Assembly: GCA_013387215.1 (NCBI GenBank)
Contig: WARW01000022.1
Coordinates: 92,612 to 156,611 of the forward strand
DNA length: 64,000 nucleotides
Source of the DNA: Patescibacteria group bacterium
GTDB taxonomy: Bacteria > Patescibacteriota > Microgenomatia > UBA12405
Direction: 5' to 3'
A model generated the notes under the pieces. It searched no databases, was not told where the DNA came from, and saw only the letters and a list, made by a program, of their open reading frames with translations. The position numbers and the translations under genes are program-made. Shown here one piece after another: positions 8,292 through 39,535 of the stretch. Positions within the stretch are counted from its first letter, which is position 1; the number at the start of each line of letters is the position of its first letter.

Positions 8292-8415
8292 TAAAGTGTG
8301 GATATCTACAAATTATATTATATAATAGGACAATTTTAATACACTGATTGTGTTAAAAGGTACATTGAAACAGGTCACACCTGCGTGACTAAAATATTTG
8401 AAAGGAGTTGTTATT

Positions 8416-8853
8416 ATGTTAAAACTAGTCAAAAGGTTTTTGGGATCAATTGCAAATTTTTACAAAAGAATTACTAAGGATTCTACTCAAGATTTATCCG
8501 GAAACGCTCCAACTATTGAGGTGTTTCCAAACTCTTCCTACAGAATTGCACTTGATGAATTGTGTTTGCGCAATGGATTAAATTCAAAAGACTTAGTTCT
8601 GAACATGAAAAAATCCATTGAATCTGATTTTCAAAAAGCAAAAGAATTGACAGAAAAAGCAAATGAAATGAACAACGAAGCTACGAAAATTTTTAACGAA
8701 GCTATCAGAATAGCAAATGAAAATTACGCAAATGCAAAAGCAGCAGCTCGTGAAGTTTCAGATGAATCAATCACAATCAGCAAGAAGGCAGATATCAGCA
8801 GTAAATCTTACTATCTTTTAGCTACAGAAAGCGATATAAACAATTCCAAATAG
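8416..8853 (+). CDS. hypothetical coiled-coil protein (145 aa from the ATG)
   Basis: AAAGGAG RBS lies 8 nt upstream of the ATG at 8416. The track start at 8398 is a TTG. Confidence 0.45.
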   Translation: MLKLVKRFLGSIANFYKRITKDSTQDLSGNAPTIEVFPNSSYRIALDELCLRNGLNSKDLVLNMKKSIESDFQKAKELTEKANEMNNEATKIFNEAIRIANENYANAKAAAREVSDESITISKKADISSKSYYLLATESDINNSK

Positions 8854-8878
8854 TCTCTTGAGGGGCAAAAATTCTTTT

Positions 8879-11578: not shown

Positions 11579-11583
11579 ATTTT

Positions 11584-23194: not shown

Positions 23195-24193
23195 TTAACT
23201 GGCAATGTCGAGTGGTTTTTCCGAATTATTATTTAAAACTTGAGGAAGTAATCCGTAATCTTCTGCGAGTTTAATTAAATGATTTGTAATCATATCGCCA
23301 CGCTTGGCAACAATTTCATCGTTGGGAGTTAAAATATTTATAGTCAGATATCGACCGACTGCATCTTGTTTACGCCTATTTTCCATATTATCCTGTACCT
23401 CAGAAATTTTGGCTTTTGCAGAATCAGCTAAATTAGTTACTTTATCTTGTATATTTTTACCAACCTCGTCTGATTTAGATTGAAATGATTCTAAGGTTGG
23501 TTGAATATTTTCTTGAACTTTTTCTTTATTTTCATTTAAAGTATTAGATGTTTGATTAAATTTATCTCTTACTGTTGGCTTTAAATCTTCTGATTTTTCT
23601 TGAATGTTTGTTTTTGCGTCTTTTAAAATATTTTTAGATTTTTCAACACCTTCATTTATTTTTCCTTGTATACCTTGAGTTTTTTCCTGTTCTTTAATAG
23701 TTTCTTCCACTTGGGGTTTGACAATAATTACATCTTTACCAATTGTTTCTATTTGAGAAATATTCACATACTTCTTGCCAGATTTTAAATCCTTAAAACC
23801 GCCTTGAGAGACTTCAAATTTTTCAACATATCCAGTTGTTGGATCAAATAATAAATCTGAGATTGTGCCAAGTTCCACACCTGTATCAGTGACCACTCTA
23901 TTGCGAGTTATATATGTATCGTGTTTGGCGATTGATGAAATTTTTTCTCCTGCTTCACTAGAATTTATAATTAAATTATCATTTTCTATTATCAAAGCAT
24001 CATCTCCAATACTTTTAACGTTATTAATTAAAATTAATTTGGGGTCTGAAAATAGTCCACTTTTTTTAACAATAACTGCAGCAATTTTTTTCTCATCGGG
24101 GTCATAAATTAGATCTTCAACTTTACCTATTTCTTTGCCATCCTGAAGAGAAATTATTTTTAAACCAATTACGTTTGTACCTTTTATAGTCAT
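23195..24193 (-). CDS. PRC-barrel-domain protein (two PRC barrels plus a long C-terminal coiled coil)
   Basis: Repeated GxxVxxxxGxxxGxVxDxxxD pattern (GLKIISLQDGKEIGKVEDLIYD; VVTDTGVELGTISDLLFD). Lys/Glu-rich heptads. Confidence 0.55.
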   Translation of the reverse strand: MTIKGTNVIGLKIISLQDGKEIGKVEDLIYDPDEKKIAAVIVKKSGLFSDPKLILINNVKSIGDDALIIENDNLIINSSEAGEKISSIAKHDTYITRNRVVTDTGVELGTISDLLFDPTTGYVEKFEVSQGGFKDLKSGKKYVNISQIETIGKDVIIVKPQVEETIKEQEKTQGIQGKINEGVEKSKNILKDAKTNIQEKSEDLKPTVRDKFNQTSNTLNENKEKVQENIQPTLESFQSKSDEVGKNIQDKVTNLADSAKAKISEVQDNMENRRKQDAVGRYLTINILTPNDEIVAKRGDMITNHLIKLAEDYGLLPQVLNNNSEKPLDIAS

Positions 24194-24201
24194 ATTTTTA
24201 T

Positions 24202-24651
24202 TTAATTTTTAAAATTGTTTATTTTAGTTTTAATAATGCCTTTTTGCTTCCTAGTCCAAAGAGCCAAAATCAGTCCAAGAGCTATCAAAATTAAGGCTGC
24301 ATATGGTAAATAAGTAGATTTCCAATCAATAGTTTTATTATTTACTGCGTCGACAGAAAGGATGTTTCCATTGTTACCTGTAGTGATAGTAACCCTATCG
24401 TTTTGGGTTATGTCGTTTAAACTAGATTCCGATTGATTTTTAGTAATTTTGATATCATCGGGAATGTTGTAGTCTTTTACCCCATTGTCTGTTTCTACTG
24501 TTAGGGTTTTATCTTCTCTTCTTAATACAGTTCCCGAAGTTGTGTTATTGGGAATATTTTCAACAGCCAATGTAACCCAAGTCAAACTAACAATGAAAGT
24601 AATGAGAAGAGACAGCGTCAAAAAAAAACTTCTAATAAATTTTTTACTCAT
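24202..24651 (-). CDS. small bitopic surface protein (N-terminal signal anchor, beta-rich ectodomain, C-terminal TM plus basic tail)
   Basis: Hydrophobic N- and C-termini. The C-terminus reads TYLPYAALILIALGLILALWTRKQKG. Confidence 0.5.
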   Translation of the reverse strand: MSKKFIRSFFLTLSLLITFIVSLTWVTLAVENIPNNTTSGTVLRREDKTLTVETDNGVKDYNIPDDIKITKNQSESSLNDITQNDRVTITTGNNGNILSVDAVNNKTIDWKSTYLPYAALILIALGLILALWTRKQKGIIKTKINNFKN

Positions 24652-24792: not shown

Positions 24793-26715
24793 TTACTTTT
24801 GACCTAAAAAGAAAGACTGAACATCTTTATATTGGATTCGATTAGAAAAATCGCTATTAATTAAAGCCTCATTGCCACCCATACCCATATGCCAGTAGTT
24901 GAAACCAACTACACCGGGTCTTTTGGCAGCACCCATACTATTTTGAACTTGTTGTTCAACATCAGTAGTTCCAGCGCTACCCCATTCGCCTATTATGATT
25001 GGAACGTTTGGATATTTGGCTTGTAAATCATTCAATCCTTGATTCATTGTTTGACCAATAAGTTCTGGATAATGATCAATAGTTAAGTTGCCCATTTTTT
25101 GGACAGTGGCATCTTCCAAAATACCGTGCCAATCTGGATTATTACAACCCCAGACAACAAATCCATCTAGACCATAATAACCAACTTTCATTTGACCGCC
25201 TAGGCCAATAGAACTAAAGGCTTGATTTGATGTATCAATAGCGTCTCTGAGCCATTTATTAAAGTCTGCAATACTAGAATATTGGCATACACCTTGATCA
25301 CAACCAGTGAATCCTTGGATTCCACCGTTTTGTGGTTCTGGTTGAGGTGTGAAAATATCTCCAGCTGCAAATAAAGATGGATTATTTTTAATATAATCGG
25401 AAATCATAGTGAGATAATCAGCTTTGCTTTTATTAGCACCATATATTCCTTCAAATGTAATGTACATGTGCCGATGCCATACTTTCATGCCGCGAGCACG
25501 AATAGCGTCAACCCAAGCTTTAGTATAGGCAAGTGAGTTGCCACAAGATGGATTATCATATGGTGTTTCAACAGCAACATAATTAACTCCCAATTCTTTG
25601 GCTTTATCTAACCATTTACCAATAAAGGTTGGATCATCTTGACCACAAATTTTATCTTTGGTCTCTTTCATTGAGGAAACGCTTTGAATATCCCAAGTTT
25701 TGCCAGAATTTATTGGTGTAGGGGCAATGGTTGGCGTAACTGTAGGAATTGGATTAGATGTTGAGGAAATCAAACTATAGTTTAATTTTGCAACAGCATT
25801 TCCAGTGTTTTCATAATATTCCACTTTAATTTGATGATTACCTGCTGAAACTACCCGATCAGCTCCATCAGTTTTAAGAGCATGATCATTCCATTGATCA
25901 ATCAGCAAGTCGTTATCTAACCAGACTCGAATTCCATCGTCAGAATTAGTGATAAAACGATATGTACCCGCACTGAACGATTGGGTTTTGGTCCATCTGG
26001 CAACAAAATGATCGTTTGTTATTACTGAATTTGGTGAACCAGAACCCCAGTCAAAATTTATAGCACTATCTTGAGTGGTTAAAGTAGGAGAACTTGTTGG
26101 AATTTGAGGCGACGAAGAAACATTTGGTGTATTCCAATAGTTTCCAACGAAGTTATTTGAGTTTGTAACAACAGGAGTGGGTGTAGGCGTATTAGTCGGA
26201 GTTACTTGTGGCTGTGTAGAACCAACAACTTTTATACTCGTAATATCCACAGTAAATGGACCTGAATACCAAAATCTTGTATGAAGATCACCAACTGATT
26301 GGCTTAAGTTTAAACCAGAAAAATCGCTTAAATTTATATCAACAGTTTGAGGACCGTCAAAACAATTTTTGCCATAGTTAGACAAACTAACGTAATTCCA
26401 ATTATTAGATTGGTCAAAAATAAGCGCACTAGCATCACCGCTTAAAGCACAAAGTCCATGAAGATCATATGTAACTCTCAATGTACTGCTTCCTATAAGT
26501 GCTGAAGAATTTATAGATTGTCTTGCTTCAGATGCACCATTATTTCCAGTGAGATGCCAAGTTCCATTTAATAACTCGACATCACCGGCTGCATTGACCG
26601 ATTTATTATGAATAAATAAGCTGACAAAAAACGACAGACAAAGAAACGATAAAAAATATAGACGTTTTGATGAAAGTATCTTCATAGGGTGAATATTTTT
26701 TAAATAAATAAGCAA
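24793..26715 (-). CDS. secreted multidomain protein: signal peptide, beta-sandwich (CBM-like) domain, Thr/Pro linker, PA14 domain, Thr/Pro linker, clan-A (GH5-like) TIM-barrel glycoside-hydrolase-like domain
   Basis: Signal peptide. PA14 signature (YRFITNSDDGIRVWLDNDLLIDQW). Candidate catalytic Glu motifs (QPEPQNGG, IIGEWGSAG). Linkers TPTNTPTPTP and PIPTVTPTIAPTP. Confidence 0.7.
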   Translation of the reverse strand: MLIYLKNIHPMKILSSKRLYFLSFLCLSFFVSLFIHNKSVNAAGDVELLNGTWHLTGNNGASEARQSINSSALIGSSTLRVTYDLHGLCALSGDASALIFDQSNNWNYVSLSNYGKNCFDGPQTVDINLSDFSGLNLSQSVGDLHTRFWYSGPFTVDITSIKVVGSTQPQVTPTNTPTPTPVVTNSNNFVGNYWNTPNVSSSPQIPTSSPTLTTQDSAINFDWGSGSPNSVITNDHFVARWTKTQSFSAGTYRFITNSDDGIRVWLDNDLLIDQWNDHALKTDGADRVVSAGNHQIKVEYYENTGNAVAKLNYSLISSTSNPIPTVTPTIAPTPINSGKTWDIQSVSSMKETKDKICGQDDPTFIGKWLDKAKELGVNYVAVETPYDNPSCGNSLAYTKAWVDAIRARGMKVWHRHMYITFEGIYGANKSKADYLTMISDYIKNNPSLFAAGDIFTPQPEPQNGGIQGFTGCDQGVCQYSSIADFNKWLRDAIDTSNQAFSSIGLGGQMKVGYYGLDGFVVWGCNNPDWHGILEDATVQKMGNLTIDHYPELIGQTMNQGLNDLQAKYPNVPIIIGEWGSAGTTDVEQQVQNSMGAAKRPGVVGFNYWHMGMGGNEALINSDFSNRIQYKDVQSFFLGQK

Positions 26716-27474: not shown

Positions 27475-27489
27475 TAACTTTTAAATTTC

Positions 27490-30400
27490 ATGGAAAATAC
27501 AAGCAATAAAATATTTAGAATAAAACCGCGTGATTTTAAGTCGACAATAGGTGCTGGAGTAGTTTTTAAAGAAAAAAGATTTATAACTCATACGTTGCTG
27601 GATGAATCTAAATCAGCAGTAATAACTTTCGCTAGGTGGCAGAAAGTAATTATTCTATTATTTTTATTAAGTTTAATTACTGGCTTAATTTTGTTTCCAC
27701 TAAAAACATTAGGTTTGTTTGTTGGATTTTTAAGTGTAGTTTATTTTATTGATGTACTTTTTAATTTATATGTAATATTTAAAAGTTTATATTTTCCACC
27801 AGAAATTATTGTCAAGGATGAGGATATAAAAAATATAAATGATTTAGAACTCCCAACATATTCTATACTTTGTCCTTTATATAAGGAATCTGAAGTAATC
27901 AAACAATTTTTAACAAATATAAATAATATTGATTGGCCAAAAAATAAACTTGATGTGCTGCTCCTACTTGAAGAGGATGATCTGATTACCCAAGAGGCGG
28001 CAAAAAATATAGATTTACCAAAATATGTTAGGGTAATTATTGTTCCAAATTCATTGCCAAAAACAAAACCAAAAGCTTGTAATTATGGACTACAACTTGC
28101 CAAAGGAAAATATCTAGTTGTTTACGATGCTGAAGACTTACCTGATCCACTTCAACTTAAAAAGGCATATCTAACTTTTCAAAAAGTACCTAAAAACGTT
28201 TACTGCTTACAAGCAAAACTAAATTACTATAATTCATCACAAAATTTGTTGACCCGATTATTTACGGCCGAATATTCCCTTTGGTTTGACGTTGTTTTAC
28301 CAGGATTACAATCGATCAATACCAGCATACCGTTGGGTGGAACCAGTAATCATTTTAGAACTAACGATTTAATTAAACTTCAAGGCTGGGATCCTTTTAA
28401 TGTGACAGAAGATTGCGATTTGGGAATAAGATTGTTCAAAGAAGGATATAAAACGGCAATATTTGATTCTACTACTTTGGAAGAGGCCAACAGTAATGTG
28501 GGAAATTGGATAAGACAAAGATCACGCTGGATAAAAGGATATTTGCAAACCTATTTTGTTCATACCAGAAACCCAATAAGTTTTATAAAAGATTTCAAAT
28601 TTCACGCCTTAATATTTCAATTAATTATCGGTCTTCGTATTTCATTCATTTTAATTAATCCGATTCTTTGGCTGACTACAATCGCCTACTTCGTTTTTTA
28701 TAAATATGTTGGGTCGACTATCGAACTTTTGTATCCTCCTTTTATTTTTTACATTGCCGCCTTCTCACTGTTGATTGGAAATTTTATCTATCTTTACAAT
28801 TATATGATTGGCTGCGCCAAAAAGGAGCAATGGTCAATATTAAAGTTTGTATATCTAGTTCCATTCTATTGGGTATTGATGACTTCAAGTGCTGTTATGG
28901 CCATTCATCAATTAATTTTTAAACCATATTTTTGGGAAAAAACGAACCACGGCTTGAATGTTCAAAAAGAGAAGAGGCCAATCTTTGGACCAGTCTTTGC
29001 AAATTTGGGATTGTTTTTTAAGGATATCCGAGAGGCTGACCTTGTCTTGGTTTTAGCAGCAATTGGGGTTAATTTTTTGAACTTTTTGTATAATGCTTTT
29101 TTGAGTCGAAATGTAAATATAGAAGGTTTTGGTTTAATAAGCTTAATTAGTAACTTTTTTCTTCTAGTTTCCATTCCAATTTATTCACTTTCTGCAACAG
29201 TTGCTAATAAGACTGCATTTTTCTTGGGAAAATATAAAATTTCAATTAAGGATTTTTGGTCTATAACCAGGAAACGTACGATATCAGTTGGATTTGTAGT
29301 AGCAATAATTTGGTTAACACTAATACCTTTTTTGATGCTATTTTTCCAAGCAAACTCCCCTATTCCATTCATATTATTTACCCCTATTTTAATAATTGGA
29401 CTAGTGGGTGCCGTGGATAGTGGTTTTTTAAGTGGTAATTTAAGATTTAAAGATATTGCGTTATTGATTATGATCGAGGCTTTTTTGAAGTTAGTGCTTT
29501 CTATATATATTGTTGAATTGGGTTTCCCTAATTTAGTCTATGCAGCAATTCCAGTTTCTATGATTGTGTCTTTTGTTATGGCATGGATGTTTGCAAGAAA
29601 TATAGTTCCCGAATCTAAAGTGACAAGTGAAAACACAATTTCGTTTCCAGTCGGTTTTTTTTCCACATCTTTTTTAATTAAATTTTCACTTATAGCTTTT
29701 CTAAGTTTTGATGTTCTTTTGGCTAAACACTTTTTGAGTCCCATTGAATCTGGAAAATATGCGTTAATAGCCCTTGCTGGTAAAATGATATTTTTTATTA
29801 GCACTTTATTTAGCCAATTTCTTATTCCTTTAATAAGTAAATCTGAAGGCGCAAATAATAACAGTAATAAGATTTTTGGCAAGATTTTTTTGATCTCTAT
29901 TTTTTCCAGTCTGGTTTTATATATCGGAATTGGTTTATTTGGAAATATTACAGCTCCAATATTATTTGGATCTAACATTAAATCGGTGACGCAATTGTTG
30001 CCTGTATATGGATTAGCAATATTGTGTTTCACAATTTCGAATAATATTGAAACTTTTCAATTAATTAAGAATGACAAAATATTTCCAACCTTAAGTTTTT
30101 TAATAGCAATTTTGCAAATTATTGGCATTTCTATATTTCACAACAGTATTCAAGATATCGTGTTAATCATGACAGTAGTTTCAATATTAAGTATCTTATT
30201 TGTGACTATCATTAGTCTGAATTATCAATATATAAATAGTTCACTTATAAAATTATCCGAAATATTTATTGGCAATAAATATAATGTAAATGAAAATAAT
30301 AAATATCGAATTCTAATTTTCAATTGGTATGACATAAAAAATAAATGGTCTGGGGGTGCTGAAATATACATACATAAAATAGCCAATTATTTAGCTAAAA

Positions 30401-31458
30401 ATAATTGTGAACTTACTTTTTTTTGTGCCGGTGATGGAAGCAGCCTGAGTGAAGAAACTGTTGATGGGATAAAAATTATAAGAAAAGGCAATATGTATAC
30501 CGTTCCTATTTGGGCTTTTATTAATTATATTTTTCGATTTAGAGGCAAGTACGATTTAATAATCGATGTTGCTAAAGGAATTCCCTTTTTCACACCTTTA
30601 TACAGCAGCATTCCAGTTATCGGGGTTATTCATCATATCCATCAAAAAATGTTTTTGAGTGGGCTGCCATTCCCGTTGAATCGAATCGCTATGACTATAG
30701 AAGCCAACTTTTTGCCTGCAATTTATAAAAATACAGATATGATAACCGTTTCAAAATCCTCAAAATCTGCAATGAGCGATATTGGTTTTGATATAAAAAG
30801 AATACGAATTGCTAATCCGGGAGTGAAAATAAAAATTAACAAAAAAATTAATAAATCCACAAAACCAACATTAATTTATTTGGGACGACTTAAGCAATAT
30901 AAACATATTGATAACATTATTATTGCTTTAGCAAAAATTAAAAAATACCATCCAGAAACTAAATTAATTATTGCCGGAACTGGCGATAATGAAGAATATT
31001 TAAGAGAGTTAACTAGAGATTTGAAACTAGAAAAATCTGTTGATTTTATGGGTAAGGTTTCCGAAGAAGATAAGCCAAGCTTACTGGGAAAAGCTTGGAT
31101 AGCAATACAACCTTCTGAGGTTGAAGGTTGGGGCATAACAAATATTGAAGCGAACATGTGCGGTACTCCAGTAATTGCATCAGACGTAGACGGATTAAAA
31201 GATTCTGTAATAGATGGAAAAACTGGAATTTTGGTTCCAGTGAACAACATTAATTCTCTTGCTAAAGCAGTGATTGATCTTATTGAGGATGATGTTTATA
31301 GAACTTATTTAACTAATAACGCAATTAAATGGAGCAAAAGATTTAAATGGCATAAAAGCGGAAAAATATTTATTGATTTGATAAATCAAAAGCTTAAAAA
31401 ACAAAGTGAAGAGTATGGTGTGGTTGAGAATGAAAATTTGGAGGGAGTATATGAATAG
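27490..31458 (+). CDS. 1322-aa fusion: TM-flanked processive GT2 synthase domain, Wzx/MOP-like multi-TM domain (~12 TM), C-terminal GT4 (Glycos_transf_1) domain
   Basis: GT2 motifs D…DAED…TED…QRSRW are all present (aa ~120-350). Residues ~500-900 are almost entirely hydrophobic helices, like a polysaccharide-biosynthesis flippase. The C-terminal EGWGITNIEANMCGTPVIASDVDGLKDSVIDGKTGILV matches GT4. One uninterrupted ORF. Confidence 0.8.
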   Translation: MENTSNKIFRIKPRDFKSTIGAGVVFKEKRFITHTLLDESKSAVITFARWQKVIILLFLLSLITGLILFPLKTLGLFVGFLSVVYFIDVLFNLYVIFKSLYFPPEIIVKDEDIKNINDLELPTYSILCPLYKESEVIKQFLTNINNIDWPKNKLDVLLLLEEDDLITQEAAKNIDLPKYVRVIIVPNSLPKTKPKACNYGLQLAKGKYLVVYDAEDLPDPLQLKKAYLTFQKVPKNVYCLQAKLNYYNSSQNLLTRLFTAEYSLWFDVVLPGLQSINTSIPLGGTSNHFRTNDLIKLQGWDPFNVTEDCDLGIRLFKEGYKTAIFDSTTLEEANSNVGNWIRQRSRWIKGYLQTYFVHTRNPISFIKDFKFHALIFQLIIGLRISFILINPILWLTTIAYFVFYKYVGSTIELLYPPFIFYIAAFSLLIGNFIYLYNYMIGCAKKEQWSILKFVYLVPFYWVLMTSSAVMAIHQLIFKPYFWEKTNHGLNVQKEKRPIFGPVFANLGLFFKDIREADLVLVLAAIGVNFLNFLYNAFLSRNVNIEGFGLISLISNFFLLVSIPIYSLSATVANKTAFFLGKYKISIKDFWSITRKRTISVGFVVAIIWLTLIPFLMLFFQANSPIPFILFTPILIIGLVGAVDSGFLSGNLRFKDIALLIMIEAFLKLVLSIYIVELGFPNLVYAAIPVSMIVSFVMAWMFARNIVPESKVTSENTISFPVGFFSTSFLIKFSLIAFLSFDVLLAKHFLSPIESGKYALIALAGKMIFFISTLFSQFLIPLISKSEGANNNSNKIFGKIFLISIFSSLVLYIGIGLFGNITAPILFGSNIKSVTQLLPVYGLAILCFTISNNIETFQLIKNDKIFPTLSFLIAILQIIGISIFHNSIQDIVLIMTVVSILSILFVTIISLNYQYINSSLIKLSEIFIGNKYNVNENNKYRILIFNWYDIKNKWSGGAEIYIHKIANYLAKNNCELTFFCAGDGSSLSEETVDGIKIIRKGNMYTVPIWAFINYIFRFRGKYDLIIDVAKGIPFFTPLYSSIPVIGVIHHIHQKMFLSGLPFPLNRIAMTIEANFLPAIYKNTDMITVSKSSKSAMSDIGFDIKRIRIANPGVKIKINKKINKSTKPTLIYLGRLKQYKHIDNIIIALAKIKKYHPETKLIIAGTGDNEEYLRELTRDLKLEKSVDFMGKVSEEDKPSLLGKAWIAIQPSEVEGWGITNIEANMCGTPVIASDVDGLKDSVIDGKTGILVPVNNINSLAKAVIDLIEDDVYRTYLTNNAIKWSKRFKWHKSGKIFIDLINQKLKKQSEEYGVVENENLEGVYE

Positions 31459-32374
31459 GACATTGTTAGTAAACATCGGAATTCCCGCATATAACGAAAT
31501 GCAGAACATCGGGAAATTATTAGAATCTCTACAATCTCAAAATTTTCAAGAATTTAAGATAAACAATATATTGGTTGTATCTGATGGCAGCACCGATGAC
31601 ACAGATAGAATCGTAAAAAAATTTAAAAATAAAAAAATAAAATTGATTAGTGATAAAAAAAGAAACGGAGTGGCTATTAGACTTAATCAAATTATAAAGC
31701 TAACCGATACGGATATTTTAGTTATTTTAAATGCCGATATTTTACCTAAAGATTCTAATTTTATTGATCATTTGGTTAAGCCGATAATACATTATAATGC
31801 CGACTTAACATCAGCAGCAATTAGACCCGTTACTCCTACAAAATGGTTTGAAAAAATTGTTGGAGTAGGCGAAAAAATAAAAACTAGTTTTTTTGAAGAT
31901 TATTTAAAGGGTAATAATTTTTATACTTGCAGAGGGACCGCTAGAGCATTTTCTAAAAGATTTTATAAAAAGATTGTGTTTCCAAACAAAATTGGCGACG
32001 ATTCTTATTCGTATTTATATTGTGTGTCTAATAATTATAAATACTTTTTTGCAGACCAGGCGATTATTTATTTTAAATTACCAGATAGTTATAAAGATTT
32101 TAAAAAACAAATAGTTAGGTTTTTAAAAATTAAAGAGAATTTTTCTTTGGTTTTTGGAACGAAACAAATAAATAAAAATTTATATTTTTCAAAATTTAAG
32201 TTTATTAAAAAAACATTTTCTTATTTTTTACACGATATTATGGGGACGGTTCTGTATTCAATGCTTTACACGTATGTACGAATAGACAGTTTATTCGCAA
32301 GAAGCGATAGCTCTGGTGCTTGGGAAACTTCAAAAAGCACTAAATTATTAAACAATTTATATGAAACAAAATAA
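31451..32374 (+). CDS. GT2 family glycosyltransferase
   Basis: NIGIPAYNEMQNI…VVSDGSTDDT. Start ATG at 31451 overlaps the upstream stop (ATGAATAG). GGAGG lies 4 nt upstream. Confidence 0.75.
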   Translation: MNRTLLVNIGIPAYNEMQNIGKLLESLQSQNFQEFKINNILVVSDGSTDDTDRIVKKFKNKKIKLISDKKRNGVAIRLNQIIKLTDTDILVILNADILPKDSNFIDHLVKPIIHYNADLTSAAIRPVTPTKWFEKIVGVGEKIKTSFFEDYLKGNNFYTCRGTARAFSKRFYKKIVFPNKIGDDSYSYLYCVSNNYKYFFADQAIIYFKLPDSYKDFKKQIVRFLKIKENFSLVFGTKQINKNLYFSKFKFIKKTFSYFLHDIMGTVLYSMLYTYVRIDSLFARSDSSGAWETSKSTKLLNNLYETK

Positions 32375-33185
32375 ACAACTTTTTAGATATGAAAATGTTT
32401 TGATACCAATAAGAAAAATTGTATATCTTGTTCTTTGTTTTTATGATCAATATATTTTAAAAAACTATAATAAAACTTTTGTTGTTTGTTATCACAGTAT
32501 TTCCAGTGATGATTGGAGATTTAGCATAAATCCAGAAAATTTTAAAAAACAAATTAATTATTTATCAAAAAATTACCAGTTTATTAATGCAGATCAGCTT
32601 CTTAATTATTTAGAAAACAAAGACAATTTAAGTAAACCATCGATCCTTATATGCTTTGATGATGGTTATAAAGATTTATTATCGATAAAAAACTATTTAT
32701 ATCAGAAAAATATAAAACCATTATTATTTCTAATCTCTAAAACTAAAGGTGTTAACCGAAAGGAATTAAAAAATAGAAAACAACTTTTAAACAAAAATGA
32801 TATAAAAACGCTCATGGATTTTGGTTGGACAATTGGCTCACACGGCCTGACTCATTCTAATTTTTTCAAATTGAATAAGTTGCAAAAAGAATCAGAAATA
32901 ATTATTTCAAAAAAGACTTTAGAAAAAAAATTTAGAGTAGATATTAAATATTTTTCTTTTCCAAAGGGAAATTATTCTATTGAAGATATCGAAATTTTAA
33001 GAAGAGCAGGTTATAAGTTGGCTTTTTCTATGGAAGATAGAATTTTAGTCCAACAAATTAATCCCTATATTATTCCTCGAATCGGAGTCGATAAAACTCA
33101 TAATTTTAATGAATTTAAATCACTTTTTTCACCTTCTGTAATAAAAGTTAGAAATGTTTTTAAAAAATTTTTATCCTATGTCTAA
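32361..33185 (+). CDS. polysaccharide deacetylase (NodB/CE4)
   Basis: ICFDDGYKDL, HGLTHSNF and later His motifs. Confidence 0.75.
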   Translation: MKQNKQLFRYENVLIPIRKIVYLVLCFYDQYILKNYNKTFVVCYHSISSDDWRFSINPENFKKQINYLSKNYQFINADQLLNYLENKDNLSKPSILICFDDGYKDLLSIKNYLYQKNIKPLLFLISKTKGVNRKELKNRKQLLNKNDIKTLMDFGWTIGSHGLTHSNFFKLNKLQKESEIIISKKTLEKKFRVDIKYFSFPKGNYSIEDIEILRRAGYKLAFSMEDRILVQQINPYIIPRIGVDKTHNFNEFKSLFSPSVIKVRNVFKKFLSYV

Positions 33186-33891
33186 TAATTTGATTAATAT
33201 ACTAAATTTAGCCCGATCTAAAACCAGTAGGTTTGTTAAACCTAGAAAAAATTATTTTATTTTTACAAACCCACAAAGAAGTTTGAGGCCAGTGAGCAAA
33301 TTATATGGATTTGACAGAGGGACACCGATCGACAGGTATTATATTGAAAAATTTTTAGAAAATAATAAAGTTTTAATTTATGGGAGATGTTTGGAGATAC
33401 ATGACAATTTTTATACAAAAAAATTTGGAGAGGAAAGGGTTACTGTAAGCGATGTCTTGGATATAAATCCTGATAATTTTCAGGCAAATATTCATGGAGA
33501 TTTGAGAAATTTATCCAATATCGAAAATGAAACCTATGATTGTTTAATAGTTACTCATACCTTGGGAATAATCGATGATTACAATTCGGTAGTGAAAGAA
33601 TGTTATCGAATATTAAAAAAAGGTGGATACCTGCTTTTAACTTCTTCATTTATCGGGCCGCTTTATGACAAAGAAAATACTTTTTGGAAATTTACACCTA
33701 AGTCTTTAGACTATATATTTTCAAAAATATTTTTAAATTCTAAAGCTGAAATTACAACGTATGGGAATGTTTTGGTCTGCCAATGTTTTTTGGCTGGTTT
33801 TTCATTAGAAGAACTTAAACGAGAAGAACTTGAATATAACGATTCTAATTTTCCATTAGTAGTTTGTTTAAAGGTAAGAAAAAGTTTATGA
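33178..33891 (+). CDS. class I SAM-dependent methyltransferase
   Basis: CLEIHD…VLDIN… (motif I-like) and …RILKKGGYLLLT (post-II). ATGTCTAA overlap with the upstream stop. Confidence 0.6.
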   Translation: MSNNLINILNLARSKTSRFVKPRKNYFIFTNPQRSLRPVSKLYGFDRGTPIDRYYIEKFLENNKVLIYGRCLEIHDNFYTKKFGEERVTVSDVLDINPDNFQANIHGDLRNLSNIENETYDCLIVTHTLGIIDDYNSVVKECYRILKKGGYLLLTSSFIGPLYDKENTFWKFTPKSLDYIFSKIFLNSKAEITTYGNVLVCQCFLAGFSLEELKREELEYNDSNFPLVVCLKVRKSL

Positions 33892-35093
33892 AAAACAAAC
33901 ATATTGATGTAATCGTTAAGTATTTTTATCCGGTCGTTGCAGGAATTGAAACAAACATATTGGAAACGTATAGCATTTTAGCTAAAGAAGGGTGGGATAT
34001 TACTATTCATACTTCCAAAGATGTATATATGTGTAAAAATTGCTTAAGCGACAAAGAAAAATATAGAGGATTAAGAATAGTTCGATATAAGTTTTCTTTT
34101 TTTGGTTTTTTTCCCAAAATTGATTGGAGTAATACTAGTTTGGTATGTCTTCACAATTTTGATGTTTTCCCTCATTTTAGAATTCTTATATATAGTTTGT
34201 ATTTGAAAATTTTAGATAAAAAATATTTTGGTCTAATATTAACTCCCCATGGCGGCTTTAATCCAGAATGGTCTATTTATTCAAAAGCAATTGGCTTCAT
34301 AAAAAAGTTGTATCACTTTACATTTGGAGCTATTTTAATAAATTTAGTAGTTGATGGAATCAGGGCGGTTTCAGATTGGGAAAAAGAAGAAATTATTTCT
34401 AAGAATGTAAAAAAAGAATTAGTCGTAGTTATTGATAATGGAATTGAAACTGAGGCATTTTTGAATCTCGAAAAACTGGCTAGCAAGGAAATAAAAAACC
34501 AAGTAAGTATTTTTGGAGATTATATTATTCAAATAGGCAGAATCTATCCGATTAAGAACTATGAAACAACGATAATTGCCTTAAATAGTCTTCCTAAAAA
34601 TCTTAAATATATAATTGTTGGACCCATTAGCGATAAAAAATATTTTGATAATTTAAATATTTTAATAAACAAATTCAATTTAAATGATCGCGTTAAATTT
34701 GTGGGGGTGATAAAAGGAATCGATAAATATTACCTTATCAAACACGCTCAAATGATGGTGCACATGGCTTTATGGGAAAGTTTTTGCAATGTTGTTCATG
34801 AAGGCTTAAGTCAAGGCTTGGTGTGCATAGTGGCCAACAATACCGCTCTACCCTATTTGGTTAAGGATGGAATAAATGGATATTGTGTAGAAACAAAAGA
34901 TTTTAATGAATTGGCAAAAAAAATCAATTTTGTTTTGAAGAACAAAGAAACTCCAATGATAAAAGAAATGGAGGAAATTAACAGAAATTATGGCCGAATT
35001 AATAGCTGGAAAAATGTGGCGAATAAAATGAATTCTTTTTATAAGTACAAACTTAACATGTTTACTAATCATGAAAAACTATGGTCAGTCTAA
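33888..35093 (+). CDS. GT4 family glycosyltransferase
   Basis: Glycos_transf_1 C-terminal block (…SFCNVVHEGLSQGLVCIVANNTALPYLVKDGINGY). ATGA overlap with the methyltransferase stop. Confidence 0.75.
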   Translation: MKNKHIDVIVKYFYPVVAGIETNILETYSILAKEGWDITIHTSKDVYMCKNCLSDKEKYRGLRIVRYKFSFFGFFPKIDWSNTSLVCLHNFDVFPHFRILIYSLYLKILDKKYFGLILTPHGGFNPEWSIYSKAIGFIKKLYHFTFGAILINLVVDGIRAVSDWEKEEIISKNVKKELVVVIDNGIETEAFLNLEKLASKEIKNQVSIFGDYIIQIGRIYPIKNYETTIIALNSLPKNLKYIIVGPISDKKYFDNLNILINKFNLNDRVKFVGVIKGIDKYYLIKHAQMMVHMALWESFCNVVHEGLSQGLVCIVANNTALPYLVKDGINGYCVETKDFNELAKKINFVLKNKETPMIKEMEEINRNYGRINSWKNVANKMNSFYKYKLNMFTNHEKLWSV

Positions 35094-36715
35094 ATTTAAA
35101 GAATAACTGGTTTAATGTTTTATATTATTTAATTTGTATATTAATATTGGTTTTAAGTCTGCGAGGAATTCCGGGGAATCCAAAAGATTTAGAATTAAAT
35201 ACTTCAACTTGGAAAGAAAATGGACCTTTGGAATTATCTACAGACAGAGGAAGATTCGCTTTAACTTATTCTTTATTAGAGAATAAATCTTTTAATTTTT
35301 CTTTAAATATTGCTAAGTTTGCAACTCCAGATTTGGGATATTTCAATGGCAAGTTTGTTTCCTTGTTTGATCCTGGTTTATCATTTTTGGTTATACCAGG
35401 ATATATTATTGGGAAACTATTAGGAGCTGCACAAGTCGGGACTTTTGCCATTATTTCTATCTTTGCGCTTTTAAATGTCTTTCTAATTAGAAAGTTATCA
35501 GAAGAACTTGGAGCTAATAAAATTATGTCTGCGATAGCTGGTTTAGTATTTTTATTTGCAACACCGGCTTTTACTTATAGTGTTACTTTGTATCAACACC
35601 AAATTACAACTTTTATTATTTTGCTGTCTACTTTTCTTTTAATAAAATATGATAATTTTTGGACATTGGCTTTAGTATGGATGCTTCTTGGATTGTCGTT
35701 TGCCATTGATTATCCAAATGCAGTTTTGGTTTTTCCACTAGTAATTTTGGCAATTAAAAAAATATTTTCTATCGATATTCAAAAAAACAGAATTTTATTT
35801 AGATTAAAGAGTTTATACATATTAAGTTTATTAACAGTACTTATACCAATCAGCTTTCTTCTTTGGTTCAATAAAAATTCATACAATAAATATTTTCAAC
35901 TGGCAGGTACGGTTACTCAAGTTACAGGGTTTGATAATAACACTCCTATAAATAATAGATATGTTATTGAAGATGCAACAAAGTATGTAAGCCCAGACAG
36001 AAAAAGCGGTTTTTTGGGAAGCTTTTTTTATACAAGAAATTTGCTTGAAGGATTTTATATTTTATTTTTAAGTCCAGACAGAGGAATTGTGAATTATACG
36101 CCTGTAATTCTTTTGGGATTAGGCGGAATTATTGTGGCTTATAAAAGGAAAATGGAATTACTGCCATTTTTGTTTTCAATAATCGGATTGAATATTCTTT
36201 TGTATGCCATGTGGGGAGACCCTTGGGGCGGATGGGCTTTTGGATCAAGATACTTAATACCTACCTATGCTATTCTTTCTATTTTTATTTCCATATTTTT
36301 AACAAAATATAGAAAATATTTAATCTTGTTGCCAATATTTTTAATTTTGTTTTCTTATTCAGTTTTTGTAAATACTGCCGGTGCTATTACTACTAATGCA
36401 ATACCACCTCAAGTTGAAGTGCTTGATTTGGAAAAAGCTTCCAACAGTATTCAAAAATATACTTATCAAAAAAATTTTGATTATTTGAGCATGAATAAAT
36501 CGAAATCATTTGTTTACCAATTAATCGGCAAAAATTATATGAGTTCCTGGAGATACTTTTATGTTTTGTATACATTAATTATGTCTTTAAGCGTGGGTTT
36601 ATTAGTTGTTCAATATGCAGATAATTTTAAAAAAATATTTTCAAAAATCTCCATTAATGTTTTTCGAAAAACATTACCTCTTAATATTAATTTTTTAAAG
36701 AGAAAATATGACTAA
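35081..36715 (+). CDS. GT-C-fold (PMT/ArnT-like) polytopic membrane glycosyltransferase, putative
   Basis: About 12 TM. Asp/Arg-containing first extracytoplasmic loop (LSTDRGRFALTYSL). Overall topology like GT39/GT83. Confidence 0.55.
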   Translation: MVSLNLKNNWFNVLYYLICILILVLSLRGIPGNPKDLELNTSTWKENGPLELSTDRGRFALTYSLLENKSFNFSLNIAKFATPDLGYFNGKFVSLFDPGLSFLVIPGYIIGKLLGAAQVGTFAIISIFALLNVFLIRKLSEELGANKIMSAIAGLVFLFATPAFTYSVTLYQHQITTFIILLSTFLLIKYDNFWTLALVWMLLGLSFAIDYPNAVLVFPLVILAIKKIFSIDIQKNRILFRLKSLYILSLLTVLIPISFLLWFNKNSYNKYFQLAGTVTQVTGFDNNTPINNRYVIEDATKYVSPDRKSGFLGSFFYTRNLLEGFYILFLSPDRGIVNYTPVILLGLGGIIVAYKRKMELLPFLFSIIGLNILLYAMWGDPWGGWAFGSRYLIPTYAILSIFISIFLTKYRKYLILLPIFLILFSYSVFVNTAGAITTNAIPPQVEVLDLEKASNSIQKYTYQKNFDYLSMNKSKSFVYQLIGKNYMSSWRYFYVLYTLIMSLSVGLLVVQYADNFKKIFSKISINVFRKTLPLNINFLKRKYD

Positions 36716-38306
36716 CTATACATTTTCTATTCCTGTTAATTTTTGGAAAAATACAGGTTTAGTATTAGAAAAAAATTTAAAGTTAATTGTAGGAATAATT
36801 TTGGTAATAATTTCCATTACCGCATTTGTTTATTATTGGAGAAACGGACTAGGAATCGCATATAACGATGCGAGATCACACTTAGATATTGGGCGCCGAG
36901 TTATTGAAGGATTAAAACCTGGGTTAGCTCAACTTGGCTCTGTTTGGTTGCCATTGCTGCATTTCTTGATGATTCCTACAATTTGGAATAATTTTATGTG
37001 GCATTCCGGACTTTCAGGAGCATTGGTTTCGATGATTTCTTTTGTATTTTGCGGACTTTTGATTTATCAATTTCTAGAACAATTAGGGGTTGGAAAAGTT
37101 GGTCGATTAACTGGTGTAATTATTTTTGCAGCTAATCTGAATATATTATATTTGCAATCCACAGCCATGACAGAACTGTTGCTTTTAGCTACGATGACGG
37201 CTGGTTCATATGAATTATTGATTTGGCACAAAACAGGCAATTATTTAAATTTAGTTAAATCAGCGATTTGGATAATGCTTTCCACTTTAACTCGATATGA
37301 TGGGTGGTTTTTATTGTTCTATGCCACTCTTTTAATAATTATTAATGTAGTAAAAAAGAAAAGTTACAAAACAGCAGAAGGCACTTTGATTTTATTTTTG
37401 ACTATGGCCGCTTTAGGGGTGGTTTTGTGGTTTTTGTGGAATTTATTAATCTTTAAAGATCCTTTTTATTTTATTACTGGTCCATTTTCAGCAAAGGCAC
37501 AGCAAGATTTATTGTCTAACGCAGGCGTATTACCAACTAAGGGAAACTTTTTTTTATCCATGAAGGTCTATTTATATGCCTTGATGTATAACACTCAAAC
37601 TTTTCCGTCAATACTTGGATTAATTGGGGCAATTATATTGTGGTTTGATAATAAGATAAACAGATCCATAAAAATGGCATCAACGGTACTTTTAGCACCA
37701 TTATTTTTTAATATAATAGCTTTATATATTGGACACTCGGTTTTATATGTACAAGGGATATCTGGAAACACCTGGTTTAATGTTAGGTATGGAATTATGC
37801 TCCTACCATCAATTGCTATATTTATTGGATACTTAATCGATAAATTAAAACCGTTTAGGGTAGTTTTAATTTCACTTATTTTATTTACTTCATTTTTTTC
37901 AATAGTAAGCGGGGATGCAGTAACAATAGATGATGCAAAATTTGGTTCCAGCCAAAAAAACGTTACTGAAATAAGCGAGTGGCTTAAAGAAAATGTGACT
38001 AACGAAAATAGTTATATTTTAATTTCCGTTGCTTCACACGATGCAATTGTTTTTTCCTCTGGATTACCAATGAAACGTTTTATACATGAAGGGACTGGAG
38101 ACTATTGGAATAAAGCGATAATAAACCCGGATAAATACGCAAAATATATTATTATGAGAACTAATGATGCAACAGATATGACTTTTAGATTGGTCGGCAA
38201 ATCACCTGGATTTAGCCGATATCAAAAAATTTCTAGTTTTCCTTTCGCAGACATATATGAATTAAGACCAGAATATTGGAATAATTTAGCAACAAACACA
38301 AAATGA
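36708..38306 (+). CDS. second GT-C-fold membrane glycosyltransferase, putative
   Basis: About 12 TM. First loop YNDARSHLDIGRRV. Large C-terminal extracytoplasmic domain. ATGACTAA overlap with the upstream stop. Confidence 0.55.
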   Translation: MTNYTFSIPVNFWKNTGLVLEKNLKLIVGIILVIISITAFVYYWRNGLGIAYNDARSHLDIGRRVIEGLKPGLAQLGSVWLPLLHFLMIPTIWNNFMWHSGLSGALVSMISFVFCGLLIYQFLEQLGVGKVGRLTGVIIFAANLNILYLQSTAMTELLLLATMTAGSYELLIWHKTGNYLNLVKSAIWIMLSTLTRYDGWFLLFYATLLIIINVVKKKSYKTAEGTLILFLTMAALGVVLWFLWNLLIFKDPFYFITGPFSAKAQQDLLSNAGVLPTKGNFFLSMKVYLYALMYNTQTFPSILGLIGAIILWFDNKINRSIKMASTVLLAPLFFNIIALYIGHSVLYVQGISGNTWFNVRYGIMLLPSIAIFIGYLIDKLKPFRVVLISLILFTSFFSIVSGDAVTIDDAKFGSSQKNVTEISEWLKENVTNENSYILISVASHDAIVFSSGLPMKRFIHEGTGDYWNKAIINPDKYAKYIIMRTNDATDMTFRLVGKSPGFSRYQKISSFPFADIYELRPEYWNNLATNTK

Positions 38307-39535
38307 TTGCATTAGTTGCCTCGTTTGTGGTTTCGTTATTTTCTTTAAATAATAATTTAACTATTAATGATTCTTGGTGGAAAGTTCAGTCTGTTGACAC
38401 GGTAAAATATTCACGTGATCTGGCTAGAAGTGAAATTTCAAACCCAAATTTGGATTCAATTATTGACGAGCAAGTTAAAGATATTGCTGATATTGGGGCA
38501 AATTATGTTGCTATTGATACTCCATATGATGAAGAGTTTAGGCCCTATTTAATAAAATGGGTTGAAAGTGCAAGAAGACACAATCTTAATGTTTGGTTTC
38601 GAGGTAATTTTTCCGGTTGGGAAAAATGGTTTGATTATCAGTCTATTAGCAGCGAGGATCATTTAAAAATGACGAGTAATTTTATTTTAAACAATCCCGA
38701 TTTGTTTAAAGATGGTGACATTTTTACGGCTTGCCCTGAGTGTGAAAACGGAACAATAGGCGATCCAAGAAGCACTGGTAATTTAGATGAATATCGCTCG
38801 TTTATGATTAATGAATATCAAATAACAAAAAATGATTTTAAAAAAATTAATAAAAAGGTTATTTCAAACTTTAATTCGATGAATGGAGATGTAGCAATGG
38901 CAGTGATGGATAAACCGACAACACAGTCAATGGATGGAATTGTGACAATAGACCATTATGTGGCGGATCCAGAAAAAATAACTGATTATATAAATCTTAT
39001 AAGTGAAAATAGTGGAGGAAAAATTGTTTTAGGTGAATTTGGCGCTCCTATCCCCGATTTAAACGGTAATCTGGATGAAGATCAACAATCTATATGGATT
39101 AATGAAGCCTTAAATAAAATAGCTCAGTCAAATAATATTATTGGAATAAATTATTGGACTAACATAAATTCAACTACCCAACTATGGAATAATAATGGTA
39201 TCCCTAGAAAGGCCGTTAGTATCGTGAAAAATTATTATTCACCTCAAATATTAAGAGGGTCTATTAAAAATGAGATCGGACAAGCAGTTAGAAATGCCGA
39301 TGTGTATATTGCCAATAAGTCAACAAAATCTGATAATAATGGATATTTTTCAATACCATATATAAACCACAATACTAACGTAAATATTTATAGTCCCGAT
39401 TATATGCATCAGATAATATCTATTGATGATTTCAAAAAAAACGGAAAAGCAATTTTAATTAAATATCCAGAAGACTTTTGGTTTAGAGCGGAGAAATTAT
39501 TTTATTCTATATATACCAGCCGCTTCCGGAGGTAA
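38303..39535 (+). CDS. clan-A glycoside-hydrolase-like protein (paralogue of the 24793-26715 catalytic domain) with C-terminal CarboxypepD_reg-like domain
   Basis: Shares NYVAIDTPYD, GDIFTACPECENG, IDHY and LGEFGAP blocks with the PA14 protein. C-terminal GSIKNEIGQAVRNADVYIANKSTKSDNNGYFSI. ATGA overlap. Confidence 0.65.
   Translation: MIALVASFVVSLFSLNNNLTINDSWWKVQSVDTVKYSRDLARSEISNPNLDSIIDEQVKDIADIGANYVAIDTPYDEEFRPYLIKWVESARRHNLNVWFRGNFSGWEKWFDYQSISSEDHLKMTSNFILNNPDLFKDGDIFTACPECENGTIGDPRSTGNLDEYRSFMINEYQITKNDFKKINKKVISNFNSMNGDVAMAVMDKPTTQSMDGIVTIDHYVADPEKITDYINLISENSGGKIVLGEFGAPIPDLNGNLDEDQQSIWINEALNKIAQSNNIIGINYWTNINSTTQLWNNNGIPRKAVSIVKNYYSPQILRGSIKNEIGQAVRNADVYIANKSTKSDNNGYFSIPYINHNTNVNIYSPDYMHQIISIDDFKKNGKAILIKYPEDFWFRAEKLFYSIYTSRFRR

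Follow-up and report, generated by a model that had tools for sequence, protein, structure and literature searches.

Textbook schemes treat synthase-type and flippase-type export of bacterial polysaccharides as an either/or choice. We describe here a gene in which parts of both routes are fused, from a member of the candidate phyla radiation (CPR), whose members are for the most part tiny, uncultivated bacteria that depend on other cells, and about whose envelope chemistry almost nothing is known. The gene (27490-31458, + strand) lies in a 64,000-nucleotide stretch of DNA from a Patescibacteria group bacterium of the UBA12405 lineage (assembly GCA_013387215.1, contig WARW01000022.1, positions 92,612 to 156,611), which we call the window and whose numbering we use unless a related locus is named. 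The single product joins a synthase-type glycosyltransferase (GT) of family 2 (GT2), a predicted Wzx/PST-like flippase domain of the MOP superfamily, and a GT of family 4 (GT4). The gene is genuine and widely conserved in CPR bacteria, and together with its operon it points to an uncharacterized way of building a surface sugar polymer.

A search of the full-text literature, subscription journals not covered, found no description of a fusion of a synthase-type GT2 with MOP and GT4 domains, nor of the two operon-encoded protein families that we call p532 and p544. Our analysis adds three observations: most relatives carry a fourth domain (GT2a), the modules also occur as separate genes or in MOP-less forms, and the genes of the system fall into two co-varying sets.

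Comparison with Described Systems

The first-pass annotation of the locus had set synthase-dependent against Wzx-dependent export as normally alternative pathways. PelG of the Pel pathway is a PST/MOP-like protein with 12 transmembrane (TM) helices. The division proved too strict, since Pel combines a GT4 (PelF) with this separate membrane export subunit in a pathway classed as "synthase-dependent", along with the deacetylase PelA (PMC8892547, PMC7112168). At our locus, as in Pel, a GT4, a MOP-type membrane protein, a CE4 deacetylase and a possible glycosidase travel together; here, however, the GT4 and MOP parts form one polypeptide with an added synthase-type GT2. We reject membership in the Pel family, whose curated cut-offs are missed by a wide margin. 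The PelF model gave 36.2 bits on the fused GT4 and 40.4 bits on a second GT4 downstream against a cut-off of 100, the MOP domain had no PelG match in Pfam, and operon scans revealed no PelD/PelE-like or GGDEF/GAF genes.

Relative to the processive GT2 synthases (class I hyaluronan synthase (HAS), BcsA, PgaC/IcaA and chitin synthase), bit scores of the GT2 module are far below curated cut-offs: 64.7 against 422.3 for the PgaC_IcaA model and 63.8 against 699.1 for CelA. The window protein lacks a PilZ/cyclic di-GMP module and the partners PgaD, IcaD or BcsB, and it adds an N-terminal beta-hairpin, a KPxYWEKTxHG tail, the fused MOP and GT4 domains and a constant partner, p532. Membership in the poly-N-acetylglucosamine (PNAG; pga/ica) system is likewise rejected, since synthase and deacetylase both miss the equivalog cut-offs widely and the resemblance is one of type only. 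PcManGT of Pyrobaculum calidifontis (PDB 6yv7), a mannosyltransferase with a "minimal cellulose-synthase-like fold", shares 16% identity with the window protein. It is smaller and is not fused to other domains. PcManGT reportedly acts on lipid-linked N-glycan intermediates and makes no polymer.

Relative to the Wzx/PST flippases (WzxE, TacF and, more distantly, MurJ), the MOP domain lies beyond the reach of any Pfam or NCBIfam model and sits between two GT modules, whereas characterized Wzx proteins stand alone. No Wzy, Wzz or priming enzyme was recognizable nearby among the 40 window open reading frames (ORFs) scanned, which are most but not all of those of at least 150 aa.

Two other systems offer partial parallels. 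MprF is reported to be a lipid synthase of the cytoplasmic face fused to the flippase of its own product (10.1101/2022.03.11.483950). The concept is alike, in that one protein both makes a membrane-anchored product and translocates it, but folds and chemistry are unrelated: aminoacyl-phospholipid and a PplT domain there, a glycan and a MOP domain here. Three-component glycosylation systems consist of a GtrB/CsbB-type GT2, a small flippase and a GT-C transferase (PMC7389260). Most relatives of our protein resemble that set, with a DPMS/GtrB/ArnC-like GT2a, a flippase domain and polytopic partners that may be GT-C-like. However, the window protein itself has no GT2a, GT2a does not co-vary with MOP, and the flippase is of the MOP type rather than GtrA- or SMR-like. 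Overall, each part falls into a known superfamily (GT2 synthase fold, MOP or GT4), and none reaches the curated threshold of a characterized family (PgaC, CelA, PelF or the Pfam PST models).

Domain Architecture of the Fusion Protein

An unbroken + strand frame of 1322 codons starts with the ATG at 27490 and reaches its stop at 31458, exactly as first annotated from the ORF list. The stop-to-stop frame opens at 27478, just four codons 5' of the ATG, so there is no hidden N-terminal extension. The segments of the gene are listed below; pLDDT is the predicted local distance difference test score of AlphaFold2.

27490-31458, + strand: whole gene, GT2-synthase/MOP-flippase/GT4 fusion, 1322 aa, first gene of an eight-gene operon
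27490-27633, + strand: N-terminal cytoplasmic segment, residues 1-48 (alignments; AlphaFold2 strands 9-11, 23-26 and 29-32, pLDDT ~88)
27634-27792, + strand: TM1-TM2 of the GT2 synthase module, residues 49-101 (hydropathy; AlphaFold2 helices 49-68 and 70-101)
27853-28494, + strand: GT-A catalytic domain of the GT2 module, residues 122-335 (Pfam, invariant residues, per-domain conservation)
28498-28965, + strand: QRSRW interface helix and C-terminal TM helices, residues 337-477, with tail 478-492 (AlphaFold2, superposition, conservation)
28966-29031, + strand: flexible linker, residues 493-514 (pLDDT <50; 10% identity, 0 invariant columns)
29032-30264, + strand: predicted 12-TM MOP-superfamily (Wzx/PST-like) domain, residues 515-925
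30265-30318, + strand: linker with a short conserved helix, N..DF..LF (alignment; linkers of MOP-less fusions)
30319-31404, + strand: cytoplasmic GT4 domain (GT-B, retaining), residues 944-1305 (PF13439 and PF00534)

The catalytic domain of the GT2 module is flanked by TM helices that belong to the module itself, two in front of it and about four behind, which brings the whole protein to ~18 TM or interface helices instead of 12. In a per-domain family alignment, identity to the window protein and the share of invariant columns were 73% and 43% for the GT-A domain, 62% and 34% for the post-catalytic interface and TM region (with many W, Y, N, K and Q residues), 46% and 19% for GT4 and 41% and 9% for MOP. 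The two linkers had 10% and 29% identity, with 0% and 6% invariant columns. The GT2 module is therefore the most constrained part of the fusion protein within the family.

Pfam recognized this module with Glyco_trans_2_3 (4.4e-21, residues 209-402) and Glyco_tranf_2_3 (1e-18, residues 122-350). The complete motif set of processive GT2 synthases that had been noted in the sequence was found: D163/D164, D213-A-E-D216, T306-E-D308 and Q343-R-S-R-W347, with key residues invariant across 15-36 homologs. An AlphaFold2 model of residues 1-940 (pLDDT 82.8), compared with the PDB, places four helices after the catalytic domain (337-358, 371-407, 417-444 and 448-477), and the module closes with the conserved cytoplasmic tail KPxYWEKTxHG (residues 478-492). 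The top Foldseek match of the model was Chlorella-virus hyaluronan synthase (E 1.4e-9, 459 columns), followed by Escherichia coli and Rhodobacter BcsA, Xenopus HAS1 and PcManGT. Membrane synthases superposed over 325-390 residues, compared with ~160-250 for soluble GT-A enzymes, so the TM and interface region is part of the match. The model thus predicts a membrane-synthase fold, in which TM and interface helices pack against the GT domain, and not GT-A alone. By sequence, the sole match among solved structures was PcManGT, and it was very weak (E 0.0018). Elsewhere the module is also found as a protein in its own right, ~480-530 aa long, with its end corresponding to residue ~495. We conclude that it is a membrane-embedded inverting GT2 of the cellulose/hyaluronan/PNAG-synthase fold. 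In all architectures of the family, a beta-hairpin, GAGV..K..RFITHT..L....SA, precedes the synthase TM1, and its T33 and H34 are invariant. We know of no counterpart of this motif in BcsA, HAS or PgaC.

Hydropathy marks about 12 hydrophobic helices between the two transferases (residues 518-908). Residues 486-954 had no Pfam match even at E=10, and residues 505-935 had none in NCBIfam. Among 15 full-length relatives, whose middle domains are ~35-47% identical to that of the window protein, four matched PF01943 Polysacc_synt (best 1.3e-9) and one matched PF13440 Polysacc_synt_3 (4.3e-12); another protein of the MOP clade (P0149) likewise gave a Pfam match. AlphaFold2, run on residues 491-941 with 36 sequences, returned a confident model (pLDDT 85.6, predicted template-modeling score (pTM) 0.85) in which the middle domain by itself is predicted to form a complete 12-TM MOP fold. 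The model and the Pfam matches of relatives bear out the original suggestion of a flippase-like middle region of ~400 aa. The alternative that this region is the C-terminal TM bundle of the synthase is rejected. The GT2 module has helices of its own (49-101 and 337-477), the stand-alone module ends at ~495, and the middle domain alone makes a complete MOP fold. Its conserved charged and polar residues (R540, K667, D741, K746, K765 and H884) are compatible with, and not diagnostic of, translocation of a polyprenyl-(pyro)phosphate-linked glycan, the role that we would assign to the domain by analogy.

When 1.84 billion representative proteins were searched exhaustively with the MOP domain (phmmer), 3003 relatives were returned, 1187 of them at E<=1e-10. 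These are stand-alone proteins (~420 aa) or are joined to GT4 (~830 aa), to GT2 (~730 aa), to an APH-like kinase, or to GT4 and GT2 together. In one of them (P0140, 729 aa), the same MOP clade is joined to an APH/choline-kinase-like phosphotransferase domain, and separate APH-like genes stand in related operons (L001, 14601-15437; L083, 13125-14111). These fusions and genes hint at a phosphorylated or phospho-substituent decoration of the glycan.

The C-terminal GT4 is complete, as first read. Both Rossmann halves exceed their Pfam cut-offs (Glyco_transf_4, 1e-11, 45.6 bits against 28.5, residues 955-1113; Glycos_transf_1, 8.3e-46, 156.1 bits against 26.4, residues 1116-1281). The domain contains the motifs EGWG (1212-1215) and GTPVIASDVDG, and the invariant residues E1212 and E1220 make up the E-x7-E signature of retaining GT-B enzymes. 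The nearest solved sequences are PimA, PimB', MshA and BshA. The short N..DF..LF helix precedes GT4 in every architecture, MOP-less ones included.

A topology check was provided by seven natural fusions in which the membrane synthase module (GT2b in comparisons of relatives) is joined to GT4 without MOP. Their linkers are 55-90 aa long and have a maximum 19-residue Kyte-Doolittle mean of at most 1.34, hence no TM helix, so GT2b ends on the same side of the membrane as GT4. Nucleotide sugars are found in the cytoplasm, which must therefore be the shared side. Inserting 12 TM helices whose two ends are both internal, the arrangement of MOP transporters, leaves this placement unchanged. Both GT domains are thus cytoplasmic, and all three catalytic or entry sites face that compartment.

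Family Spread and Rearrangement of Modules

Among 5.8 billion proteins, a homolog search identified one of identical sequence (P0001, 100%) and more than 120 collinear homologs with 47-52% identity and 97-100% coverage. Named sources were Woese-, Beckwith-, Curtiss-, Shapiro- and Amesbacteria and "Patescibacteria group". With one genome taken per GTDB species, at least 596 loci carry relatives, nearly all in Patescibacteria, with Gottesman-, Davies-, Roizman-, Levy-, Dojka-, Doudna-, Morani- and Saccharibacteria among them. The protein is therefore one member of a very large family and is not singular. Several third-party records of metagenome-assembled genomes that hold the gene (L012-L015, L018, L019, L024 and others) are titled "uncultured Gammaproteobacteria", "Bdellovibrionales" or "Pseudomonadales"; given their gene content, these titles are probably placeholder or wrong taxonomic labels.

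Most homologs are ~1545 aa long. The extra ~220 residues are an N-terminal soluble GT2, which we named GT2a, with the motif D-x-D-L-Q-Y-P-P-E (homologs P0002-P0120; loci L001, L003-L006 and others). Among solved structures it comes closest to polyprenyl-phosphate sugar synthases, namely Pyrococcus DPMS (5mlz, 5.7e-18), GtrB (5ekp) and ArnC, and its best NCBIfam models are PgfS, ArnC and AglJ, each below its own cut-off. The window protein lacks GT2a. The gene upstream codes for a small protein that is unrelated and has a hydrophobic segment at its N-terminus. No true GT2a gene was found near the fusion, the downstream GT2 reaching only 42.7 bits with the GT2a profile.

At 82 related loci, we assigned architectures by searching the six-frame ORFs with profiles for GT2a, GT2b, MOP and GT4:

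GT2a-GT2b-MOP-GT4 in one ORF: 19 loci
GT2b-MOP-GT4 in one ORF, as in the window: about 10 loci
GT2(a)b and MOP-GT4 as adjacent genes: 10 loci, plus L083
GT2a and GT2b-MOP-GT4 as two genes: 3 loci
GT2(a)b-GT4 fused without MOP: 11 loci
MOP remnant in the fusion, with an intact MOP gene adjoining: 2 loci
GT2(a)b and MOP as two genes: 3 loci
GT2(a)b alone: about 20 loci

The three-domain architecture of the window protein thus recurs in one ORF at about 10 of the 82 loci. Because the modules are often separate adjacent genes or MOP-less GT2-GT4 fusions, the fusion is best regarded as an evolutionarily labile joining of a multi-protein system. The first-pass annotation had proposed an undescribed assembly line in a single enzyme: the pairing of synthase-type and Wzx-type parts is real, but with modules so often apart it is not necessarily a new single-enzyme mechanism.

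At two loci (L046, 743-6513; L063, 7233-12886) the fusion keeps a MOP remnant of ~200 aa (~92-99 bits) and is directly followed by an intact stand-alone MOP gene of ~490-500 aa. A third (L049) retains a two-helix MOP remnant with an FD..LAK motif. These remnants look like snapshots of domain decay or replacement.

Operon and Co-Variation

Downstream of the fusion, the start gene, gene ends overlap from 31.4 to 39.5 kb, and the gene order recurs in L001, L002 and L083. The seven genes are:

31406-32374, + strand: soluble-type GT2, 322 aa (PF00535, 6e-23; position kept in L001, L002 and L083)
32361-33185, + strand: CE4 polysaccharide deacetylase, IcaB/PgaB-like (PF01522, 2e-16)
33154-33891, + strand: S-adenosylmethionine-dependent methyltransferase (PF08241)
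33864-35093, + strand: second GT4, 409 aa (Pfam; best match archaeal Agl16)
35081-36715, + strand: p544, ~10 TM helices, unannotated family (homolog search, topology, co-variation)
36708-38306, + strand: p532, 532 aa, polytopic with a C-terminal soluble domain, unannotated family
38303-39535, + strand: p410, 410 aa, secreted or anchored, ~280-aa domain and CarboxypepD_reg-like domain, last operon gene

Co-variation was scored by Fisher tests that ignore shared ancestry, at 64 loci drawn from the 80 best for which 6 kb or more of sequence was available downstream. The most constant neighbor of the GT2 synthase module is p532, present at 54 of the 64 whatever the MOP or GT4 status, and some loci contain this pair but neither MOP nor GT4 within 8 kb. 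Three other components track GT4: p544 (45 of 50 loci with GT4, 1 of 14 without; p=8e-9), the deacetylase (23 of 50 against 0 of 14; p=0.001) and MOP (38 of 50 against 2 of 14; p=5e-5). Two co-varying sets are clear, GT2b, often GT2a, and p532 in one, and GT4, MOP, p544 and often the deacetylase in the other. GT2a and MOP were uncorrelated (p=0.19). We therefore rejected a GacI/GacK-like pairing of the DPMS-like GT2a with MOP; the window protein, moreover, has no GT2a and none is nearby.

The p532 family (2158 homologs at E<=0.001, 60-69% identity) is more conserved than the fusion protein itself, and p544 has 1020 homologs at the same threshold with ~50% identity. All are annotated "hypothetical", and none of the 120 listed for either family has a Pfam domain. 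A weak NCBIfam match connects p544 to the putative glycosyltransferase family of Leptospira LA_3751/LA_3752 (43 bits against a cut-off of 200), and we consider p544 a candidate for a partner of the Wzy, ligase or GT-C type. To propose that p532 is GT-C-like or a co-synthase would be only a guess. After TM1, p532 has an extremely conserved first loop, GLGxAYNDARSHLDIGRRVVEGLKPG... A paralogous relationship between p532 and p544 is not demonstrable (hhalign between the families, 2% probability).

The deacetylase stays below cut-off with both PNAG models (IcaB, nearly full length, 50.7 bits against 248; PgaB, 56.9 against 322), as does the downstream GT4 with the NCBIfam Agl16 model (1e-50, 172.6 bits against 575). 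The ~280-aa domain of p410 is shared with a divergently oriented 640-aa PA14-domain protein (24793-26715, - strand; 28% identity, E 6e-24) and had no Pfam or PDB sequence match. It carries a GE[FW]G motif, which we take to recall the nucleophile motif of clan GH-A glycosidases, and a p410-type protein may be the glycosidase of the system.

Proposed Mechanism

We consider it quite possible, though short of probable, that the fusion protein is the lead enzyme of a two-track surface-glycan machine encoded by a conserved Patescibacteria operon, in which two sub-systems that are separate elsewhere have been joined. On the first track, the GT2 module would make a beta-linked, probably N-acetylhexosamine (HexNAc)-containing chain at the cytoplasmic face, and the chain would be handled through the module's own highly conserved TM region, with p532. 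Loci with GT2 and p532 but no MOP or GT4, and a GT2 TM region far more conserved than MOP, suggest that this track is self-sufficient; processivity and self-translocation by the module would follow from its fold, motif set and TM conservation and from those same loci. On the second track, GT4, the soluble GTs of the operon and the methyltransferase would build a membrane-anchored glycan, most likely linked to polyprenyl phosphate. To our knowledge, all characterized Wzx/PST proteins have a polyprenyl-phosphate-linked substrate. The 12-TM MOP domain, with GT4 tethered at its cytoplasmic C-terminus, would move this glycan to the outer face, where p544, the CE4 deacetylase and a putative glycosidase (perhaps p410) would act on it. 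Fusion would hold both tracks in one place at 1:1 stoichiometry, and their products may be combined into one envelope polymer.

Several points weigh against this scheme. The AlphaFold2 model of residues 1-940 has a pTM of 0.55 and a disordered linker (pLDDT <50), so a fixed GT2/MOP interface cannot be claimed, and the prediction does not show physical cooperation between the two. PcManGT, the closest small structural match, is said to be a non-processive transferase of lipid-linked glycans, in which case a synthase fold with QxxRW is no proof of processivity or self-export. The MOP-less GT2-GT4 fusions tie GT4 as closely to the GT2 module as to MOP, and they also fit a single track. The co-variation counts come from the 80 best loci, with kinship ignored, and for every family member the mechanism is based on sequence and models. 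Single-sequence and profile searches of PDB sequences gave no known fold (GT-C, Wzy or any other) for p532 or p544. Finally, no Bac_transf, Glycos_transf_4 or Wzy family of Pfam occurs in the 40 scanned neighboring ORFs. The gene for a priming enzyme may lie in another part of the genome, and the polytopic p544 and p532 could fill a Wzy or ligase role. The suggestion that the fusion protein itself primes a lipid carrier found no evidence: the protein has no phosphoglycosyltransferase domain, and none was found in those 40 ORFs.

The fullest form of the proposal is an undescribed, lineage-wide Patescibacteria machine for envelope glycan that couples the synthase-type and Wzx-type routes in one polypeptide, works with p532 and p544, and has its products joined outside into a composite polymer. 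We regard this as somewhat unlikely. If true, it would add a hybrid mode, the fourth, to the synthase-, Wzx/Wzy- and ABC-dependent modes by which bacteria assemble polysaccharides.

Alternatively, the GT2 module could be non-processive or oligo-processive like PcManGT and could work with GT4 and the operon GTs on one polyprenyl-phosphate-linked glycan. The tethered MOP would then be the sole export route, and p544 and p532 would polymerize or transfer the flipped unit outside, as in a pathway resembling Wzx/Wzy or protein glycosylation whose transferases are attached to the flippase. Operons with 4-9 GTs and a methyltransferase or kinase are typical of hetero-oligosaccharide units, direct GT2-GT4 fusions suggest consecutive steps, the GT2a of most relatives resembles polyprenyl-phosphate sugar synthases, and the MOP clade is repeatedly fused to cytoplasmic GTs. 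However, GT2 and p532 occur in many loci with no MOP or GT4 nearby, so that the GT2 product seems independent of the attached flippase. Conservation of the GT2 TM region, with its many aromatic and polar residues, is unusually high, GT2a does not follow MOP, and no priming enzyme or Wzy was recognized in the scanned ORFs. On balance we think this unlikely.

We judge it improbable that GT4 acts as a PelF-like polymerase whose alpha-linked HexNAc polymer is exported directly by MOP in the manner of PelG, independently of a lipid carrier. CE4 would partly de-N-acetylate the polymer outside, as PelA does, and GT2 would make a second polymer or cooperate in some other way. The co-variation of GT4, MOP and the deacetylase and the putative glycosidase of the operon agree with such a scheme, but the deacetylase occurs in only about half of the GT4 loci and the PelF score of the fused GT4 is far too low. 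The MOP domain matches neither PelG nor any other Pfam family, its relatives match Polysacc_synt families, and no PelD/PelE-like gene or cyclic di-GMP receptor was seen in the operon. The host lineage is monoderm, which counts in favor of a Pel-like scheme. So do the pelDEAFG-type operons known in monoderm Gram-positive bacteria (PMC7112168) and the division of labor in Pel itself, where transferase and export are separate subunits accompanied by a deacetylase (PMC8892547, PMC7112168).

It is highly improbable that the inverting GT2 and the retaining GT4 take turns on one chain with alternating beta and alpha linkages, like the bifunctional heparosan or hyaluronan synthases, with export by the GT2 channel or by MOP. 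Direct GT2-GT4 fusions with short cytoplasmic linkers, the constant pairing of one inverting with one retaining domain and the operon deacetylase can be cited for it, but it derives purely from the architecture, the GT2 module often occurs without any GT4, and the many extra GTs of the operon argue for a more complex product. An artefact, whether an error of sequencing or assembly that merged three neighboring genes or a pseudogene in decay, is a negligible prospect for which we found no support (L010, L012, L017 and L032 are split at domain borders, by real fissions or frameshifts there), and it is rejected because the frame is uninterrupted, the homologs from independent assemblies are collinear across both junctions, about 30 loci of other species have single ORFs and the catalytic motifs are invariant.

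Implications

Across a large part of the radiation, the fusion gene and its operon rank with the best-conserved envelope loci, and at least 596 species genomes have a relative. Partner proteins are 50-69% identical, yet they are annotated merely as "glycosyltransferase" or "hypothetical protein"; two of them, p532 and p544, are defined here as new membrane-protein families. The pattern of fusion and fission is a ready interaction map of which transferase goes with which membrane protein, and it can serve as a natural test of possible cooperation between synthase-type and flippase-type export. Single-polypeptide constructs could also serve for structures of a Wzx-type flippase beside an enzyme that may make its substrate.

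Other Features of the Window

The window is AT-rich (G+C ~26-37%). Two antisense ORFs, of 164 aa (29538-30032, - strand) and 124 aa (30876-31250, - strand), sit inside the fusion gene; lying opposite strongly conserved + strand coding sequence, they are taken to be chance ORFs. An Rfam scan of the window found two tRNAs only and no regulatory RNA near the operon. The genes uvrC, uvrA and uvrB lie 14-20 kb upstream of the fusion (7005-13578, - strand), and at a related locus (L001, 1-6111) the order uvrB-uvrA-(transglutaminase)-uvrC is found 4-10 kb upstream of the homolog. This uvr neighborhood amounts to loose synteny across relatives of roughly 50% identity. Also upstream, a 332-aa protein (23195-24193, - strand) combines two PRC-barrel domains with a long, apolipoprotein-like helical repeat region rich in K, E, Q and N, and a small membrane-anchored protein is encoded next to it (24202-24651).

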